64,000 bases of DNA from a phage: sequence record OZ470804.1; one strand, given 5' to 3'. Each line of letters starts with the position of its first letter. Position 1 is the stretch's first letter. The notes below the pieces were generated by a model that was not told the DNA's origin, did not search any database, and saw only the letters and a list, made by a program, of their open reading frames with translations. Positions 39,160 to 59,025 of this stretch are shown here, one piece after another. A program made the position numbers and the translations under genes.

Positions 39160-39188
39160 TTGACAAAGATTGATAGGTTCTATAGAAT
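39160..39188 (+). promoter_or_regulatory. sigma70-like promoter TTGACA-N17-TAGAAT
   Basis: TTGACA 39160-39165, 17-nt spacer, TAGAAT 39183-39188. Confidence 0.45.
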
Positions 39189-51874: not shown

Positions 51875-52207
51875 TTGTGGAATGTGGAGAGTCGGTATTA
51901 CTCCAGAAGAGTTAATCAACTTCTGTATAAAAGTTTGAGAGATAGTGAAATGGGAATCTGGAATAGTTTTAAATCAAAAGTAAAAGCAGCATTGGCATCA
52001 TTAGGTATGCTCACTGGTGTTGATGTGACCCATCTTATGCAAAACTTCAAGATGGATGAGAATCTGGCTAATGAGATTATGAAAAGCATCTACGTAGGTC
52101 GTGGTAAAGGTGGTAAGAAACAAGCACATCGACCAACTGGTGCAGCAGCAATTAAACGTGCAGCTAAAAAAGCTCGTAACCGTAAACGTAACAAGAAGGC
52201 TAAATAA
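51875..52207 (+). CDS. hypothetical basic protein (start uncertain)
   Basis: C-terminus Lys/Arg-rich AAIKRAAKKARNRKRNKKAK. Confidence 0.3.
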   Translation: MWNVESRYYSRRVNQLLYKSLRDSEMGIWNSFKSKVKAALASLGMLTGVDVTHLMQNFKMDENLANEIMKSIYVGRGKGGKKQAHRPTGAAAIKRAAKKARNRKRNKKAK

Positions 52208-52209
52208 TC

Positions 52210-52521
52210 ATGAGCAAAGTTTATAACACTCGTAAAATTCAGATTTCTGTTCTGTGTCAGTTTATGGCTGATAAACACAATTCACATTATTGTGGCACAG
52301 GTTTCCTTACTCTTGGTGGCGGTTACATTAGCTTCAAAGAGGCTGTAAAGATGTACAATGAGCACCCTGAAGATGATAAAGAGCTGAAGCAGCTTAAACT
52401 CTCTTATGATAAGAAACGTAAGAAAATAATCTGCTTGAACAACCTTATCAAGCCAACTGAAAAGGTTTATGATGCAATTGGCGAAGAAGGTTTCTTCAAA
52501 GTATTGAAATTAGTTCAGTAA
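52210..52521 (+). CDS. hypothetical protein
   Basis: 103-aa ORF followed by terminator. Confidence 0.35.
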   Translation: MSKVYNTRKIQISVLCQFMADKHNSHYCGTGFLTLGGGYISFKEAVKMYNEHPEDDKELKQLKLSYDKKRKKIICLNNLIKPTEKVYDAIGEEGFFKVLKLVQ

Positions 52522-52534
52522 GAGTCTATGATTA

Positions 52535-52559
52535 GGGAACTGTAAAGGTTCCCTTTTTT
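52535..52559 (+). terminator. rho-independent terminator
   Basis: GGGAAC-TGTAAAG-GTTCCC hairpin followed by TTTTTT. Confidence 0.65.
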
Positions 52560-52573
52560 ATTTTGGAGATAAT

Positions 52574-53089
52574 ATGTACCTGTCAAACCTGAAACGTTCG
52601 GCTGCAATGTCAGTGTTAAGGCTCAGCTTTGAGGAACGTCAAGAGTTCATTGACTCCCACCAATACGACCCTTCTAACTCAAATCACATGATTCTCTGGA
52701 ATCGTGATAACTTCCGTGAAAGAGCACTTGTCCGTTATTACCCACACTACACAATAGATAACCTGTATGAATGGTGTGTTGTGAAGAACACTATTGCAAC
52801 ACTTAACAATCTTTGCAGGTATACAGGCAAGCAAACATTTACACTAGGTCACCACAAGCCTGTTACAAAAGGTGGTGAACATCACTGTGCAAACTGGTTT
52901 ATCCAAACTAAAGCTGATAACCAGAAGCAAGGAGATAGACTCCTAAGCATCCCTAAGATGACCTATGAAGAGCAAGAGAAATATATCAAAAATAATATGC
53001 CAGATGTGCTTGACAACAACTATACAGATTTGGCAATATCTCTCCTGTTGAAGTTTGAGACAGTTTATAGGGCAACTTACAATGGCTAA
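52574..53089 (+). CDS. HNH-like endonuclease (candidate)
   Basis: LGHHKPVTKGGEHHCANWFIQTKADNQKQGD has His/Asn spacing suggestive of an HNH nuclease. Confidence 0.4.
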   Translation: MYLSNLKRSAAMSVLRLSFEERQEFIDSHQYDPSNSNHMILWNRDNFRERALVRYYPHYTIDNLYEWCVVKNTIATLNNLCRYTGKQTFTLGHHKPVTKGGEHHCANWFIQTKADNQKQGDRLLSIPKMTYEEQEKYIKNNMPDVLDNNYTDLAISLLLKFETVYRATYNG

Positions 53090-53360
53090 AGCAGATTGGG
53101 AAATAAAAGACCTAATAAGTGATGCTGGAAATGGTTGTGAGATGTATATGATTCGTGGTCATGTACCAGACCCATTAGCTCTTGAGATGATTGACCATCA
53201 CACAAATGGATTCTACAAAGAACTAGGTGAACCAAATGTTGAACGCACTTGGACAAAACCAGTACCAGATAGCACAGGCAACTGTTCAGTCCTCTATCAC
53301 ATTGTGAATCCACAAAAATGCAAAACAGCTATGGCTGTGACATTCGTAACTTTTGATTGA
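53055..53360 (+). CDS. hypothetical protein
   Basis: 101-aa ORF; likely starts at internal MAKADWEI. Confidence 0.3.
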   Translation: MRQFIGQLTMAKADWEIKDLISDAGNGCEMYMIRGHVPDPLALEMIDHHTNGFYKELGEPNVERTWTKPVPDSTGNCSVLYHIVNPQKCKTAMAVTFVTFD

Positions 53361-53372
53361 GAGAGAAAAACT

Positions 53373-54254
53373 ATGAAAACATCTATCCGTGTTATAATTC
53401 ATTCACCGACAAAAGGGTCTCATGAAGAAGAGTTTAACATCATCCAGTTCCCTTCTGGTGAGATTGGTGGACACTTTTCACAAGAGCTTGTTGACTTTAC
53501 TGCTCACGCAGCATCATCCATCAACAATGTGATTATGATTGTAAAAGGCTATGATAAAGACACATTGTTTGCTGTGGCACTTGCTAAAGAAGCAATTGAT
53601 GATTTAGTTCCTCATGAATATGCCTTAAAGACTGTCATCTTTTACTACTTACCAAATGCACGATATGACCGTCACATGTTTAAAGGTGATGCAGCAGCTT
53701 TGAAGGTTTTTGCTAAACAGGTTAATGCAATGGGGTTTGGTGCGGTCTGTGCAGTTGACCCTCACAGTTATGTGCCAGATAACCTGTTTAACTGCTTCCA
53801 AAGTATTCCTCAAAATGAAATTGCAGTCCACTATGCAAATGACCCACTGGTTGATTACTTAGTAGCCCCAGATGCAGGTGCTTCTAAGAAGATTGCAGAG
53901 ACTGCTAAAGAGGTGGATAAACCATACATCACAATGTCTAAAGTACGTAACCTTCAGACTGGTGAAATTACTGGTATGCGAATCCTTGATGATGTGGATT
54001 TGACAGATAAAACTGTCATGATTCTTGATGATATCTGTGATGGTGGTCGAACCTTCATAGAAGCAGCTAAACATCTTCGTGAAGCAGGTGCAAAACGTGT
54101 GGAACTCTATGTAACACATGGTATCTTCTCTAAAGGTGTTGAAAACCTTCTTGACAATGGTATTGACCACATCTACACTACAAACTCTTTAGGGGAAGCT
54201 AAAGACCGTGGTTTAACACATTATGGTCAAGTTACTGTAGCAAACCTTGATTAA
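53373..54254 (+). CDS. ribose-phosphate pyrophosphokinase-like protein (PRPP synthetase family; candidate ADPR-pyrophosphokinase Adps)
   Basis: AVDPHS, VAPDAGASKK, ILDDICDGGRT and AKRVELYVTHGIFS align with PRPP synthetase motifs; binding loop reads DGGRT rather than DTGGT. Confidence 0.85.
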   Translation: MKTSIRVIIHSPTKGSHEEEFNIIQFPSGEIGGHFSQELVDFTAHAASSINNVIMIVKGYDKDTLFAVALAKEAIDDLVPHEYALKTVIFYYLPNARYDRHMFKGDAAALKVFAKQVNAMGFGAVCAVDPHSYVPDNLFNCFQSIPQNEIAVHYANDPLVDYLVAPDAGASKKIAETAKEVDKPYITMSKVRNLQTGEITGMRILDDVDLTDKTVMILDDICDGGRTFIEAAKHLREAGAKRVELYVTHGIFSKGVENLLDNGIDHIYTTNSLGEAKDRGLTHYGQVTVANLD

Positions 54255-54264
54255 AACTTTATAG

Positions 54265-54285
54265 GGGGCTTTTAAGCCCCATTTT
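54265..54285 (+). terminator. intercistronic hairpin (weak terminator/attenuator)
   Basis: GGGGCT-TTTA-AGCCCC followed by ATTTTG between the PRPS-like and NAMPT-like genes. Confidence 0.35.
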
Positions 54286-54301
54286 GAGAGAGATTAAAAA
54301 G

Positions 54302-56083
54302 ATGACTAAATCACTTTATGCAGTGCCAGCAGGTTTAAACGCAGATGCTTACAAATCTGGTCACATTTACCAGTACCCTAGTGCAACAGAGTACTTAATG
54401 TTTAACCTGACACCACGTAGTGACAAATGGTTTAACAGTCCCTTAGCAATTGATGGTGTAGTTGCTTTTGGTATTCAACGTTTTGTTAAAGATTACTTGA
54501 TAGACCACTGGAACGCCACCTTTTTTGAACGTGACAAAAAAGAAGCAATTGATGAAATCTTAGAAGTCATGAACGGTGTTCTGGGTAAAGATGCTATTGG
54601 TCGAGAGCATTGGGAAGCACTTCATGACTTGGGTTATCTACCAGTTGAAGTATACGCTGTAGAAGAAGGAACAGTTGTCCCTATGCGTGTACCAATGGTT
54701 GTCTTCCAGAACACTGTTTCAGGTTTCCATTGGGTAGCGGGGTATCTGGAAGATGCTTTCTCTGCTGAGATTTGGAAGGCTTGTACCATTGCAACTATTG
54801 CATTGCACTACAAACGTATCTGTAAGAAGTGGGCTGACCTTACTTGTGACAACGACTTGCATTTACCTTATCAGTGCCATGACTTTGCTATGCGTGGTAT
54901 GTCCGGCTTTACTGATGACGCATTTAACGCTGTAGGCCACTTAACCAGCTTTAAAGGGACTGATAGCTTCCCTGCTGTATATACAGCTAAACGCATCTAC
55001 GGTCAGTCCTACCCAATCTCTGATATTGGTAGCTCTGTACCAGCCACTGAACACTCTGTAATGTGTGCAAACATTGCTTGGGAAGGTGGTAATGAGTTGA
55101 TTGAAGAAGAAAGACGCTTCAAAGGTGAGTTACAAACCTTCCGTCGCTTCTTAACAGAAACTTACCCAACTGGTATTGCAAGTGTTGTTTCAGATACTTA
55201 TAATTTCTGGAGAACTGTATCAGTCATATTGCCAGAACTCCGTAAAGAGATTATGGAACGAAATGGCAAACTGGTAATTCGTCCTGATTCTGGAGACCCT
55301 GTACATATTGTCACAGGTTATAAAGCAATTCACTTAGAGTGTGCTAAAAAGGCTTATTATGAACACCTAAGCAAGCTGGAAGCCAGCGACACAATGTTGA
55401 ATGCTGTTCTGAACATGAAGCTTGAAAACATCAATTATGGTATTGCTGGATGGCTACTGTTAGAAGGCTATGAGATGGTTGTTGACAGAGAAGACTTTGA
55501 AGTTGCTGATACAGTGATGTTGAAAAATGCTTATATGGTTGGTTCTGCAAACGTTGTAACACGTCCTGTAGCAGAGATTGATGGAGCTATTAAGACCCTG
55601 TATAACATCTTTGGAGGGACTATTAACTCTAAAGGTTTTAAGGTACTGGATGAGCACATTGGCCTTATTTATGGCGACTCTATCACGTTGGAACGTGCAA
55701 ATGAAATACTGAAGCGTTTGTATGAAATGGGTTTTGCAAGCTCTAACGTAGTGTTTGGTGTAGGTTCTTACACTTACCAGTACATGACTCGTGACACCTT
55801 TGCATTTGCTGTCAAAGCAACCCTTGCAAGCATTGGTGGTAAAGAGATTATGCTTGCAAAAGACCCTAAAACAGATAGTGGTGTTAAGAAGTCTGCTTTT
55901 GGTGGTGTAGCACCTATGTGGGATGGTGAAAATCTGAAAGCTGTAGATGGCTATGGGTTCCAGAGCTTTGCAGATGCACTTGAACATCCAGCTTGTGCTT
56001 TACGTCTAGTCTTTAGCGACTCTGAGCAGTTCGGCTACACAACTCTTGGTGATATTCGAAATAATATTGACAAGCAGCTTTAA
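54302..56083 (+). CDS. nicotinamide phosphoribosyltransferase-like protein (NAMPT family; candidate Namat)
   Basis: DAYKSGH, HDFAMRGMSGF...FKGTDS, VPATEHS, SVVSDTYNFW, IRPDSGDP, YGDS, FGVGSYT align with NAMPT motifs recalled from memory; ~90-aa insertion between PDSG and YGDS; start at ATG 54302 (track TTG 54284). Confidence 0.9.
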   Translation: MTKSLYAVPAGLNADAYKSGHIYQYPSATEYLMFNLTPRSDKWFNSPLAIDGVVAFGIQRFVKDYLIDHWNATFFERDKKEAIDEILEVMNGVLGKDAIGREHWEALHDLGYLPVEVYAVEEGTVVPMRVPMVVFQNTVSGFHWVAGYLEDAFSAEIWKACTIATIALHYKRICKKWADLTCDNDLHLPYQCHDFAMRGMSGFTDDAFNAVGHLTSFKGTDSFPAVYTAKRIYGQSYPISDIGSSVPATEHSVMCANIAWEGGNELIEEERRFKGELQTFRRFLTETYPTGIASVVSDTYNFWRTVSVILPELRKEIMERNGKLVIRPDSGDPVHIVTGYKAIHLECAKKAYYEHLSKLEASDTMLNAVLNMKLENINYGIAGWLLLEGYEMVVDREDFEVADTVMLKNAYMVGSANVVTRPVAEIDGAIKTLYNIFGGTINSKGFKVLDEHIGLIYGDSITLERANEILKRLYEMGFASSNVVFGVGSYTYQYMTRDTFAFAVKATLASIGGKEIMLAKDPKTDSGVKKSAFGGVAPMWDGENLKAVDGYGFQSFADALEHPACALRLVFSDSEQFGYTTLGDIRNNIDKQL

Positions 56084-56098
56084 AAGTATATGATAAGA

Positions 56099-56119
56099 GG
56101 CTCCTACGGGAGCCTTTTT
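56099..56119 (+). terminator. rho-independent terminator
   Basis: GGCTCC-TAC-GGGAGCC hairpin followed by TTTTT. Confidence 0.65.
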
Positions 56120-56136
56120 AATTTCTGGAGAAGATT

Positions 56137-56472
56137 ATGAAAATCAAAGAAATGAACATCAACATTGTCTTAGAAGAACGCTGGGAGAACATCAAGAAGC
56201 CTGAAAATGGTCATAAGTTCCTCAACAAAATCTTAGTAGCAGCTAAAGAAGAACTGACTGGCAAGGTTGCAGCAGCAATCACAATAAAGGTGTGTGTAAA
56301 GGGTCTTCCAGACAATCACCAATTTGCACTTGACGAGTTTAAAGAAAGCTTCTACAATCCAAACAAACAGATGCTTGAAAGTAACTTTGCAGTGTCTACA
56401 AGTATCGTCCATGACAGAAGCTTTATCCTTTACAAGAATATGAGAGGTGAGTCATGCAAGCATATTGGATAG
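56137..56472 (+). CDS. hypothetical protein
   Basis: 111-aa ORF. Confidence 0.35.
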   Translation: MKIKEMNINIVLEERWENIKKPENGHKFLNKILVAAKEELTGKVAAAITIKVCVKGLPDNHQFALDEFKESFYNPNKQMLESNFAVSTSIVHDRSFILYKNMRGESCKHIG

Positions 56473-56658: not shown

Positions 56659-59025
56659 ATGCGCATGGTAAACGACCACGCAGAAGTGATTAAGAGTTCA
56701 ACTTCTTTAGAGACGTCTCAAGCACAGATTACAATGACACCTGAAATGTTCAGCCTTTTGAGTTCTGGTGTATATACCTTTAAAGAAAGGGCAGTGATTC
56801 GTGAACTGTCATGTAACGCAGTAGATGCTCAGAAAGAAGCTGGAAAAGAGAATATCCCGTTCCATGTGCATTTACCTACTCGTTTTGAGCCTTACTTTGA
56901 AGTCCGTGATTTTGGAACTGGATTGACTCATGACAAAGTAATGAGTTTGTATCTGAACTATGGGGCTTCTACGAAGAATGACTCTAATGATTACATTGGT
57001 GCAATGGGTATCGGCTCAAAATCCCCATTTGCAATTGCTCAGTCATTCACAGTGTCTAGCTATGTTGATGGTGTTGTTAATAAGTACTCTGTTTACCTTG
57101 AGAATGGTATCCCTCAAGTAACTAAGCTGACTACCAACCCAACAAAGGAACCTAATGGCTTAGCTGTACGTGTAGCAGTTGCTGACCATCGTATCTCAAA
57201 ATTCTTTGAAGAAGCTGGTCACGTATACTCATACTTTTCTGTAAAACCAGAGAGTAATGTGGAGTATAATGATATATTAGCAGATATGGATGTGATTGCT
57301 CGTGAAGAAGGTGTCTATGATGCCATGACTCATAAGCATAGCTGGCGTTCAAGCAGCAATAGAACAGAGTTTAACGTGGTTATGGGCAATATTGCCTACC
57401 CAGTTAATATGGAGGCATTACTTGGTGATGATTTCTTCAAAGTATTACCAGAATTTTTCCGCAGGAGCATAGACCTTGTAAACATCTACATGCCTATTGG
57501 TTCAGTTGCTATTGCAGCTTCTCGTGAAGCATTGCAGATGAATGACACGACAAAAAATGTTATCATCGAGGCTACTAAAAAGATAACTGAAGCAATTACA
57601 AAGGATGTTATCAAGAAAGTTAATAGTCAACCTACACTCATGGATGCTGCACAGGCTTATGCTGAGTTACGCTTGAACTCACGAGAGATGTTTAATGTTG
57701 TGTGTCCAAAGCTAGAGTGGGGAGGTGTTAAGCTTGATTCTCTGGAAGAAGAATTACTAAACATTCGTCGTGGAATTATCTACGCAGAGGACGGCTCAGT
57801 CATCTATGAACGTGACGGCAAAGGTAATATTAAGGTTGACAGTAAAGGAAACAACATTCCTAAAGTGGACTACCTATACAATCCAGTTGCTTATGTTAAG
57901 TTCAACTCTTTAGAGAGTAAGATTCGTGCAACAGCACTTTCCTACACTCAAGAGGCGAGCATGTTCAATATCTTTGGTGCAATGCGTAAAAGCCAAATTG
58001 AACAGTTTTTGTTCGTGATTAATGACCGTCGCAATAAAAACGGTACTGAAAAGACTGTAGGCCGCAATCAGATTCTGCGTGGTGCATGTCGAGACTACGC
58101 CAGTGAGTCAAGTCTGTTTCACAGATATAATGGTATTGTGTTTGTATTCTCGACTGAAAAAGAGTTAGACGACCTAATCAATCTACACAAACTTGATAAA
58201 AGCTTGTTAAAGATTGTGAAGATGTCTGATAAGGAACATCACTATCAGCGTAAAGAAGCTGTAAGGGGTGTTGTAAAACTCTGGAAAGCTGTTCCAGCAG
58301 AAGGTGTAGCTTCCTATAAAGAGGTTTCAGAGGACTTCGATACAATTGAAGAACCTCAGCTTTACATTAAGGCAGTTGGTGATACAGTTGATGGCGAATG
58401 TTTTTGCTCATCTCCAGAAGATGTAGCCAAGTCAGTTGCTAATGTTACAGGGAAGACAGTCTATGTTTTCCGAAAAGCAAATTGGAAAAAGATACCAGAA
58501 GACTGGATTGAAGTAGATGAGAAGCTCTTGAACGACAGCTTAACTGATGTTCACTGGATTAATCATAACAGGTATATGACACGTATCTATATGAATGGTG
58601 TTCTTGACCTTACAAGCAGTTGGATTATCGCCAGAAACTTTACATTCAATAACAGGAAGATTTCTCGTGGTTATTGCTATTCACGAGATACTAACAAAAC
58701 TATCTTCCTAGAAGGCAATGAAGATGCTGTAGAGGCAATGTTCGGTAAAATCCAATACGTTGCTGCACCATTTGCATACACTTATACTGTTAGTGTATTG
58801 AAAACTTTGAAAGACTGTCTTGACAATGATACAAAGCTTTACAAGAAAATTAAGAAAGCTGGTGACCGCATGGTCATTAAGGTGACAAACTACCTTTCAA
58901 AAAGAAAACAAGAAAACTTCTTGCTTTCTCATTTAGATTGGAATAAAGTGTCACCTATCGAAGTGAGTAAGTTCTTAGGCTTTGATGTGAAGTGTGTTCC
59001 AGAAGGGACTACAATTTACGATTAA
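56659..59025 (+). CDS. rIIA: rIIA-like protein with N-terminal GHKL/HATPase-type domain
   Basis: N-box-like RELSCNAVDA, G1-like DFGTGLT, G2-like GAMGIGSKSPF; 788 aa; followed by a second large gene as in rIIA-rIIB pairs. Confidence 0.5.
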   Translation: MRMVNDHAEVIKSSTSLETSQAQITMTPEMFSLLSSGVYTFKERAVIRELSCNAVDAQKEAGKENIPFHVHLPTRFEPYFEVRDFGTGLTHDKVMSLYLNYGASTKNDSNDYIGAMGIGSKSPFAIAQSFTVSSYVDGVVNKYSVYLENGIPQVTKLTTNPTKEPNGLAVRVAVADHRISKFFEEAGHVYSYFSVKPESNVEYNDILADMDVIAREEGVYDAMTHKHSWRSSSNRTEFNVVMGNIAYPVNMEALLGDDFFKVLPEFFRRSIDLVNIYMPIGSVAIAASREALQMNDTTKNVIIEATKKITEAITKDVIKKVNSQPTLMDAAQAYAELRLNSREMFNVVCPKLEWGGVKLDSLEEELLNIRRGIIYAEDGSVIYERDGKGNIKVDSKGNNIPKVDYLYNPVAYVKFNSLESKIRATALSYTQEASMFNIFGAMRKSQIEQFLFVINDRRNKNGTEKTVGRNQILRGACRDYASESSLFHRYNGIVFVFSTEKELDDLINLHKLDKSLLKIVKMSDKEHHYQRKEAVRGVVKLWKAVPAEGVASYKEVSEDFDTIEEPQLYIKAVGDTVDGECFCSSPEDVAKSVANVTGKTVYVFRKANWKKIPEDWIEVDEKLLNDSLTDVHWINHNRYMTRIYMNGVLDLTSSWIIARNFTFNNRKISRGYCYSRDTNKTIFLEGNEDAVEAMFGKIQYVAAPFAYTYTVSVLKTLKDCLDNDTKLYKKIKKAGDRMVIKVTNYLSKRKQENFLLSHLDWNKVSPIEVSKFLGFDVKCVPEGTTIYD

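Follow-up and report, generated by a model that had tools for sequence, protein, structure and literature searches.

The window analyzed here is a 64-kb stretch of the phage sequence record OZ470804.1, taken from a Felixounavirus genome of about 88 kb. It contains two adjacent genes on the plus strand, adps (53373-54254) followed by namat (54302-56083), with 47 nt between the stop codon of the former and the start codon of the latter. According to its ORF, its Pfam, NCBIfam and PHROG matches and its homology, adps is predicted to encode an ADP-ribose pyrophosphokinase (ADPR-PP synthetase) of the PRPP-synthetase family (293 aa), and namat, based on homology, fold, catalytic residues and the SCH motif (see below), a putative nicotinamide ADP-ribose transferase of the Nampt family (593 aa). 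The initial annotation had described two neighboring plus-strand genes of these families, and both the ORFs and the profile matches agree with it. In the program-made ORF list namat begins with TTG at 54284 (599 aa); the likely start is ATG at 54302, since it yields the length of bas63_0080 without gaps and is preceded, 7 nt upstream, by the Shine-Dalgarno sequence GAGAGAG. The start of adps is also preceded by a Shine-Dalgarno sequence.

The pair is matched by 257 phage records, the top match being EF202P1 (99.2%), and in almost all of these related records the GenBank labels are ribose-phosphate pyrophosphokinase and nicotinamide (or nicotinate) phosphoribosyltransferase. Phage Bas63 (JohannRWettstein, MZ501086) is a member of Felixounavirus (PMC12609058), and the order of genes is common to it and the window: NrdG, small ORFs, gp77, gp78, adps, namat, and then rIIA.

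Two intrinsic-terminator-like hairpins with T runs were identified on the plus strand. The upstream one (hairpin 52534-52554, with the T run 52534-52560; -11.6 kcal/mol) abuts promoter-like hexamers at 52504-52532, and the downstream one (hairpin 56095-56118, with the T run 56095-56125; -16.6 kcal/mol) abuts promoter-like hexamers at 56067-56094 (11/12 matches). As the upstream hairpin lies approximately 820 nt 5' of adps, with two ORFs in between (52574-53089 and 53082-53360), the terminators enclose a unit of four genes; thus, the terminators of the initial annotation are real, but they do not bracket the pair alone. Probably, adps and namat are located on one transcript with the two upstream genes. 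The first of the latter (plus strand, 171 aa) is an orthologue of bas63_0077 (91% identity; PHROG 3500; a weak HNH-like match) and is outside NARP1 chemistry. The second (plus strand, 92 aa), whose start overlaps the stop of the first, is an orthologue of bas63_0078 (71% identity; PHROG 4726; no Pfam match). In the ORF at 52210-52521, DUF7390 is the only Pfam match. The hairpin noticed earlier between adps and namat was also recovered: the plus-strand stem-loop GGGGCU-UUUA-AGCCCC (54265-54280), followed by AUUUU (54265-54285 in total; MFE -11.4 kcal/mol), is conserved in Bas63 with a changed loop. It was not scored as a terminator by the scan, because its T run is too short, and it may modulate the adps:namat ratio as an attenuator or a stabiliser.

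The Adps protein matches Pfam PF00156 and PF14572, TIGR01251 (118.6 bits, cutoff 113) and PHROG 619 (5e-97), while all Prs equivalog models score far under their cutoffs (e.g. 104 bits vs 296). It is 77% identical to Bas63 gp79 (bas63_0079), a seed of the published Adps clade (10.1101/2024.02.11.579819), 35% identical to Adps of SPbetaL1 (101 bits) and 29% identical to E. coli Prs (60 bits). Judging by pairwise identities, bit scores and the Prs equivalog models rather than by a tree, it can be placed with the Adps clade and not with cellular Prs. In this clade 97% of members have an immediately adjacent Namat gene (10.1101/2024.02.11.579819), as does the window gene.

Amino acids R97, D99, R100, H131, D219, D220 and T227 are invariant throughout the compared Adps and Prs, and the essential lysine of SPbetaL1 Adps, K162 (K197 in B. 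subtilis Prs), has its counterpart in K190. The loop DDICDGGRT, suggested initially to be consistent with a non-R5P substrate, is indeed present (aa 219-227; DDMIDTGGT in E. coli Prs), but it had to be rejected as a family-wide Adps signature: the counterpart in SPbetaL1 Adps is DDLSSFGGT, and the arginine site is occupied by R, G, Y or M in close homologues. The sole difference from E. coli Prs common to all 23 Adps-like sequences is the loss of the DTGGT threonine, and the loop as a whole is weak evidence on the substrate. Another loop, K-x-R-[DN]-x-x-[TS]-G, is found in most Adps-like homologues and is lacking in E. coli Prs. The two halves of the protein differ in conservation, with the N-terminal 180 aa being 66% identical to Bas63 gp79 and the C-terminal half 96% identical. 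Among Felixounaviruses, the window type of the N-terminal allele (at least 90% identity) occurs in 155 records, and alleles with 60-80% identity occur in 94; hence the window allele appears to be commoner than the Bas63 type.

The Namat protein matches PF04095 (2.7e-34), NF006629 (468 bits, cutoff 405) and PHROG 448 (3e-202), with PF18127 slightly below its cutoff (24.8 bits vs 25). It is 97% identical to Bas63 gp80 (bas63_0080) in an ungapped alignment and 47% identical to SPbetaL1 Namat. Its best PDB matches, both by sequence and by fold, are the Namat structures 9w5w and 9w5x; the AF2 model (pLDDT 93) is best matched by 9w5x, with a TM-score of 0.95 on the target. In comparisons of the kind the initial annotation had proposed, Adps thus scores higher with its SPbetaL1 counterpart than with E. 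coli Prs, and Namat is nearest to 9w5x.

Residues were mapped onto the crystal structure of SPbetaL1 Namat (catalytic residues and NAM, NMN and AMP contacts). The window protein is identical to it at D15, Y17, F195, R198, D221, A248, H251, R327 and D329, as well as at G458, D459, G488, S489, T496, R497 and D498, and two contacts are conservatively substituted (S190 to A196, A362 to S460). Namats have a specific selectivity-clamp motif, SCH, of the form GSX-phi-X-phi-X-phi-TRD, whose positions 3 and 7 are aromatic and stack on the adenine (PMC12774641). In the window Namat, aa 488-498 read GSYTYQYMTRD, and the two stacking positions are occupied by Y490 and Y494; the motif is missing from H. 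ducreyi NadV (GAQTYQRNTRD at the same site) and from Xanthomonas Nampt (GGALLQKVDRD). A stacking residue is also supplied by the SCL loop, as Arg in the third position or as Lys/Tyr followed by the stacking residue, and Bas63 Namat is the published example of the K-type (PMC12774641). The window SCL, RSDKWF with K42-W43, is the same as in Bas63.

Between PDSG and YGDS the window Namat carries a lineage-specific inserted subdomain (aa ~340-427; 55319-55582, plus strand), missing in SPbetaL1 Namat and in the solved Nampt chains. The insertion of about 90 aa described initially was thus reproduced: there are 77 extra residues relative to SPbetaL1, with approximately 88 residues replacing a 13-residue loop, GDPEAKDELVRKG in SPbetaL1 Namat. 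Bas63 Namat carries the insertion too. A phmmer search of the 91-aa insertion segment against 1.84 billion representatives revealed no family and a single match, a 223-aa protein that aligns from residue 1 with the end of the query and is most likely a truncated Namat. A Foldseek search of the insertion against BFVD found no fold relative (best E-value 0.22).

The orthologues in Bas63 have been studied experimentally. NARP1 was discovered in the operon formed by genes 79-80 of this phage, and deletion served to test it: without them Bas63 becomes sensitive to SIR2-HerA, and ADPR-PP is seen only when the wild-type phage infects defence-carrying cells (10.1101/2024.02.11.579819). In an independent study of Bas63, single deletions reduced plating 10^4-10^6-fold and complementation restored it; the same genes also counter retron Ec86 and hhe (10.1101/2024.10.10.617714). 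The in vivo phenotype and ADPR-PP were thus demonstrated with Bas63. As its protein "did not purify well", the reactions were established with purified enzymes of SPbetaL1, which are 35% and 47% identical to those of the window (10.1101/2024.02.11.579819). Purified SPbetaL1 Adps converts ADPR and ATP to ADPR-PP, and SPbetaL1 Namat prefers ADPR-PP over PRPP, yielding NAD+ directly (10.1101/2024.02.11.579819).

Given the orthology with Bas63, the catalytic and specificity residues, the gene order and the lack of a detectable NMNAT in the window, the locus is very likely the NARP1 counter-defence operon of Felixounavirus, and we infer that the enzymes of the window phage share NARP1 chemistry. 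First, NAD+ would be split into ADP-ribose and nicotinamide by a host defence that depletes it (SIR2-HerA/Nezha, DSR, type I Thoeris or similar). Adps would then move pyrophosphate from ATP onto the 1'' position of ADP-ribose, producing ADPR-PP, and Namat would swap this pyrophosphate for nicotinamide, giving NAD+ directly, with no NMN intermediate and no need for NMNAT. Some points weigh against this reading: the modest identity to the purified SPbetaL1 enzymes, the 66% identity to Bas63 gp79 in the N-terminal 180 aa of Adps, the subdomain by which the window Namat differs from the crystallized one, the activity of Namat with PRPP in vitro, and an NMNAT search confined to the 64 kb of the window. 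The initial pairing with NARP1 stands, given the orthology to Bas63 genes 79-80 (77% and 97%) and the shared gene order, while its status as a candidate module does not: the locus is a re-identification of a system already published and tested.

Two readings retain the phosphoribosyl chemistry suggested by the family names. In conventional salvage, a true PRPP synthetase would convert R5P to PRPP, a true Nampt would produce NMN, and the host NadR or PncC/NadD would complete NAD+. The domain models indeed indicate Prs and Nampt/NAPRTase, nearly all relatives are annotated in this way, and Namat retains a measurable PRPP-to-NMN side activity in vitro (10.1101/2024.02.11.579819). Still, the Prs assay with SPbetaL1 Adps yielded no product (the substrate according to the legend of Figure 2D being ribose-5-phosphate with ATP), and Namat offered both substrates made NAD+ as the sole product (10.1101/2024.02.11.579819); together with the low scores of the Prs equivalog models and the presence of the Namat-specific adenine clamp, this makes conventional salvage very improbable. 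Even more remote is NARP2-type salvage, in which the Nampt would be complemented by an NMNAT encoded elsewhere and the Prs-like enzyme would merely raise the PRPP supply. Nampt of the KVP40 type belongs to the same family, and about 24 kb of the genome lie beyond the window and hence outside the NMNAT search. However, in agreement with the initial annotation, no NadD- or NadR-like NMNAT, and thus no phage-encoded NMN adenylyltransferase of the kind that characterizes NARP2, was recognized in the 64-kb window by tblastn or by phmmer --max over 341 six-frame segments (single-sequence queries, E. coli NadD and NadR; all E > 0.1), and no NMNAT-annotated product occurs in positions 30-70 kb of Bas63. 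Moreover, the SCH motif is that of a Namat, the NARP1 paper reports that the two pathways did not co-occur in any phage, and Namats adjoining Adps form a clade apart from NARP2 Nampt (10.1101/2024.02.11.579819).

A different kind of reading accepts NARP1 and ascribes to the Ounavirinae-type enzymes an extra property, provided by the Namat insertion or the fast-diverging N-terminal half of Adps; regulation, partner binding and evasion of a host factor that targets NARP1 are possibilities. Structure prediction gives the insertion a compact, autonomous fold (pLDDT 95.5) with no fold relative, it persists in Ounavirinae-like Namats with as little as 46% overall identity (with the motif GYE[ML]VV in part of them), and the same site holds unrelated insertions in other phage Namats. 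The unequal conservation of the Adps halves and the action of Bas63 genes 79-80 on Ec86 and hhe point in the same direction. On the other hand, surface insertions in enzymes are often just structural, NARP1 of SPbetaL1 and Paenibacillus functions without this one, the insertion diverges approximately twice as fast as the core, and NAD+ supply alone can explain the effects on Ec86 and hhe. An extra property is unlikely, and it is equally doubtful that the insertion in Felixounavirus and other Ounavirinae-like phages is a functional module and not a passive decoration. Possible roles would be tuning the activity to the ADPR-PP supply, docking Adps or a phage or host protein, and shielding Namat against countermeasures of the host. 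The rapid divergence in the N-terminal half of Adps could have its origin in the same arms race.

The NARP1 system itself is already known, and the window locus adds nothing new to it. The correct annotation of the pair is NARP1 counter-defence Adps and Namat. The locus also provides context, being situated in a region where several Bas63 orthologues were reported to have anti-defence functions, namely gp77 (retron Ec67), gp79-80 (SIR2-HerA, Ec86 and hhe) and rIIA/rIIB (QatABCD). Moreover, it draws attention to a subdomain that is also inserted in Bas63 Namat, the one with which NARP1 was discovered in vivo.

Among known systems, NARP2 (Nampt NadV and bifunctional Nmnat NatV of Vibrio phage KVP40) shares with the window the Nampt-family fold and catalytic core and, like NARP1, rebuilds NAD+ during infection, but it is fed by PRPP, proceeds via NMN, requires NMNAT and has no Adps. 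H. ducreyi NadV (9ke8), a bacterial Nampt with the same family fold and core, lacks both aromatic clamp residues that are present in the window Namat. In the extended operons the core Adps and Namat are the same as in the window, with a Macro-domain phosphatase, Adpp, added in NARP1-AP of Vibrio phage Gary and an RyR-domain glycosidase, RyDEP, in NARP1 of phage DyoEdafos. In contrast, neither a Macro phosphatase nor an RyR glycosidase that would assign the window locus to NARP1-AP or NARP1+RyDEP was detected: at E <= 0.1, Pfam yielded neither domain in its neighbors (171, 92 and 111 aa among them), which comprise three ORFs before adps (51875-53360) and one ORF 3' of namat (56137-56472). If the reasoning of the aRES paper is followed, the window locus should not overcome aRES.

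NARP1 of the Bacillus phage SPbetaL1 (OQ921341), whose Namat crystal structures are 9w5w and 9w5x (PMC12774641), resembles the window in the order adps-namat, the catalytic lysine of Adps and, in Namat, the fold, the NAM, NMN and AMP contacts (with the two conservative substitutions) and the aromatic SCH motif. It differs in several features. SPbetaL1 Namat (491 aa) lacks the 77-residue insertion and a 15-residue insertion after the catalytic histidine, and uses R40 in the SCL in place of K42-W43; the Adps loops are DDLSSFGGT and DDICDGGRT, respectively; and the SPbetaL1 genes overlap and lack an intervening hairpin, unlike the hairpin-separated window pair. The closest system is NARP1 of Bas63 (bas63_0079/bas63_0080). 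Unlike Bas63, the window has a different allele of the N-terminal 180 aa of Adps and no equivalent of bas63_0081 3' of namat. Still, the two loci share the genus, the gene order, the homologues of gp77 and gp78 upstream, the intergenic hairpin, the DDICDGGRT loop and K190 in Adps, and a nearly identical Namat, insertion included.

The ORFs and profile searches confirm that two neighbouring + strand genes encode a PRPP-synthetase-like and a NAMPT-like protein, as the initial annotation had claimed. The product of the first gene, adps (53373-54254, 293 aa), matches PF00156, PF14572, PHROG 619 and the TIGR01251 subfamily (118.6 bits, cutoff 113), and scores far under the cutoff of every Prs equivalog model. 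The product of the adjoining ORF, namat, matches PF04095, PHROG 448 and NF006629 (468 bits, cutoff 405), with PF18127 slightly below its cutoff. The first protein is a member of the PRPP-synthetase family, and the second one belongs to the Nampt/NAPRTase family. The ORF listing places the namat start at TTG 54284 (599 aa), but ATG 54302 (54302-56083, 593 aa) is most likely the real one, since the resulting length equals that of the orthologue from Escherichia phage JohannRWettstein (Bas63, MZ501086) with an ungapped alignment, and since a GAGAGAG ribosome-binding site lies 7 nt upstream, as is the case for adps. The hairpin reported to separate the two genes is a 6-bp GC-rich stem-loop (54265-54280) followed by AUUUU, and it is also kept in Bas63. 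Some Felixounaviruses have an HNH endonuclease gene between adps and namat. In Salmonella phage HMD-P8 (PQ568382), the spacer with the hairpin, corresponding to 54255-54301 here, is replaced by a gene of about 490 nt (1191-1682) annotated as an HNH (homing) endonuclease. An HNH annotation under the pair match is also found in records such as vB_EcoM_D4, pinkbiff, skuden, Si3 and VpaE1, its placement being seen in the HMD-P8 record alone.

When compared with the characterised Adps (ADPR pyrophosphokinase) and Namat (nicotinamide ADPR transferase), Prs and NAMPT, both proteins are nearer to Adps and Namat, as judged by bit scores, the SCH selectivity-clamp motif and structural similarity. For Adps, the bit score is 101 with the Adps of Bacillus phage SPbetaL1, compared with 60 for E. 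coli Prs, and its K190 corresponds in the alignment to K162, the essential lysine of SPbetaL1 Adps. A K-x-R-[DN]-x-x-[TS]-G loop occurs in most of 23 Adps-like homologues but not in E. coli Prs. The sequence DDICDGGRT, taken initially as a pointer to a substrate other than R5P, is indeed present (aa 219-227); it is compatible with a different substrate but demonstrates none, because the motif varies. In SPbetaL1 Adps, whose biochemistry has been characterised, the loop reads DDLSSFGGT, and the arginine varies (R/G/Y/M) in close homologues, which rules DDICDGGRT out as an Adps signature. Loss of the DTGGT threonine is the single change in this loop relative to E. coli Prs that all 23 Adps-like sequences share.

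Namat is distinguished from Nampt by an adenine "selectivity clamp" added to the conserved catalytic core, as described for the SPbetaL1 Namat structure (2026, PMC12774641). Residues of this crystal structure were mapped onto the Namat studied here. Identity holds at 16 of the 18 core contacts (D15, Y17, F195, R198, D221, A248, the catalytic H251, R327, D329, G458, D459, G488, S489, T496, R497 and D498), and S190 and A362 are conservatively replaced by A196 and S460, respectively. The SCH segment of the clamp reads GSYTYQYMTRD, with stacking positions Y490 and Y494, while the same site is GAQTYQRNTRD in Haemophilus ducreyi NadV (HdNadV) and GGALLQKVDRD in Xanthomonas Nampt. The second clamp segment, SCL, is K42-W43, the same as in Bas63 Namat, which exemplifies the lysine-type SCL loop in PMC12774641. 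The AlphaFold2 model (pLDDT 93, pTM 0.91) best matches the Namat crystal structures (TM-score 0.95 on target), followed by HdNadV and then mammalian NAMPT. Namat-like proteins of 496 aa with GSYTYQYNTRD are also found on chromosomal contigs of Klebsiella, Cronobacter, Erwinia, Kosakonia and Superficieibacter, and Adps-like proteins of about 285 aa on Cronobacter and Superficieibacter contigs, which fits the published bacterial NARP1 homologues.

The insertion between PDSG and YGDS is real, this segment having 77 residues more than in SPbetaL1 Namat. It spans aa ~340-427, is also present in Bas63, and is kept in Namats of 590-610 aa from Ounavirinae-like phages, even where overall identity is only 46%, and some of these Namats contain a GYE[ML]VV motif in it; its divergence is about twice that of the Namat core. 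The insertion is predicted to be a small alpha/beta unit (pLDDT 92-96 within the full model; pLDDT 95.5 and pTM 0.84 when modelled alone). A search of 1.84 billion representative sequences yielded a single match, most likely a truncated Namat, and no fold relatives were found among viral models (best E-value 0.22). At the equivalent position, other phage Namats have unrelated insertions that differ in length, so insertions are tolerated there. PMC12774641 does not discuss the inserted segment in its text. A second, smaller insertion, which adds about 15 residues compared with SPbetaL1 Namat (55073-55129, aa 258-276), directly follows the catalytic-histidine segment ATEHSVMCAN, and its counterpart in other long-form Namats is longer and variable.

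Terminator-like hairpins with T runs are present on both sides of the pair (52534-52554 and 56095-56118), as had been noticed, but they enclose four tightly packed genes rather than a two-gene unit. The first of these (52574-53089, + strand, 171 aa) shares 91% identity with Bas63 gp77, reported to counter retron Ec67 and described as GIY-YIG (10.1101/2024.10.10.617714). Its product belongs to PHROG 3500 and has no significant Pfam match; there is a weak match to an HNH-endonuclease PHROG (E 2.4e-6, aa 58-124), and the segment HHKPVTKGGEHHCANW looks HNH-like. The second gene (53082-53360, + strand, 92 aa, PHROG 4726, no Pfam match), 71% identical to bas63_0078, lies directly upstream of adps; its ATG overlaps the TAA of the preceding gene, to which it appears to be translationally coupled. 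Strong sigma-70-like hexamers on the + strand, TTGAAA-17-TATGAT (region 52504-52560) and TTGACA-16-TATGAT (region 56067-56125), end 1 nt before the 5' arm of each terminator, so that a transcript starting at either site would lack this arm and would not be terminated. Among 31 strong promoter-like sites of the window, only these two abut a hairpin in this way, with an additional weak case at 39160. Further downstream, 56659-59025 (+ strand) encodes a 788-aa protein corresponding to bas63_0084, equal in length and position and annotated as rIIA; Bas63 g84 and g85 (rIIA, rIIB) are reported to counter QatABCD (10.1101/2024.10.10.617714). Several genes with Bas63 orthologues reported to act in counter-defence are thus grouped in this stretch of the genome.

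The 2.7 kb of the pair has matches in 257 phage records, nearly all of them from Felixounavirus or related Ounavirinae that infect Escherichia, Salmonella, Shigella and Citrobacter; Escherichia phage EF202P1 ranks first (99.2%), and the flanking 24 kb agrees. Bas63, also a Felixounavirus, shares the gene order NrdG, small ORFs, gp77, gp78, adps, namat, small ORFs, rIIA. Proteins 77% and 97% identical to Adps and Namat, respectively, are encoded by Bas63 genes 79 and 80, whose annotations read ribose-phosphate pyrophosphokinase and nicotinamide phosphoribosyltransferase. The lower identity of Adps comes with a mosaic pattern: 66% in aa 1-180 (53373-53912) and 96% in the C-terminal 113 aa. At the DNA level, identity is about 60% over the 5'-most 300 nt and reaches about 90% near the 3' end. 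The pattern suggests recombination or rapid divergence restricted to the N-terminal half. Felixounavirus-like records form two identity groups, 155 with at least 90% and 94 with 60-80%.

NARP1, the NAD+ reconstitution pathway formed by Adps and Namat, was discovered in the operon of Bas63 genes 79-80, is encoded by 859 of the phage genomes surveyed (4.3%), and does not co-occur in any phage with NARP2, the Nampt and NMNAT route (10.1101/2024.02.11.579819). It has also been identified in phage DyoEdafos with DefenseFinder. In agreement with this lack of co-occurrence, and with the initial annotation, no NadD- or NadR-like NMNAT was detectable anywhere within the 64-kb window. Bas63 without these genes becomes sensitive to SIR2-HerA and NAD+ recovery stops, host PncC and NadR are dispensable for the effect, and ADPR-PP (m/z 720.010) appears only in wild-type infection of defence-carrying cells (10.1101/2024.02.11.579819). 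The Bas63 protein "did not purify well", and the reactions were therefore demonstrated with the SPbetaL1 homologues: Adps makes ADPR-PP from ADPR and ATP and showed no Prs activity, and Namat forms NAD+ from ADPR-PP and nicotinamide and, when given both substrates, favours ADPR-PP over PRPP (10.1101/2024.02.11.579819). In PhageMaP, an independent screen, single g79 or g80 deletions cut plating on Sir2-HerA cells 10^4-10^6-fold and were rescued by complementation; the effects reported for retron Ec86 and hhe were weaker (10.1101/2024.10.10.617714).

The residual minor points are the inserted subdomain of Namat, the N-terminal half of Adps with its mosaic pattern, and the probable transcription of four genes as one unit. 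Judged by its sequence, the locus is NARP1, and the original reading of the gene pair was right; as it comes from the same genus as the discovery and encodes nearly the same proteins as Bas63, the system is already known.
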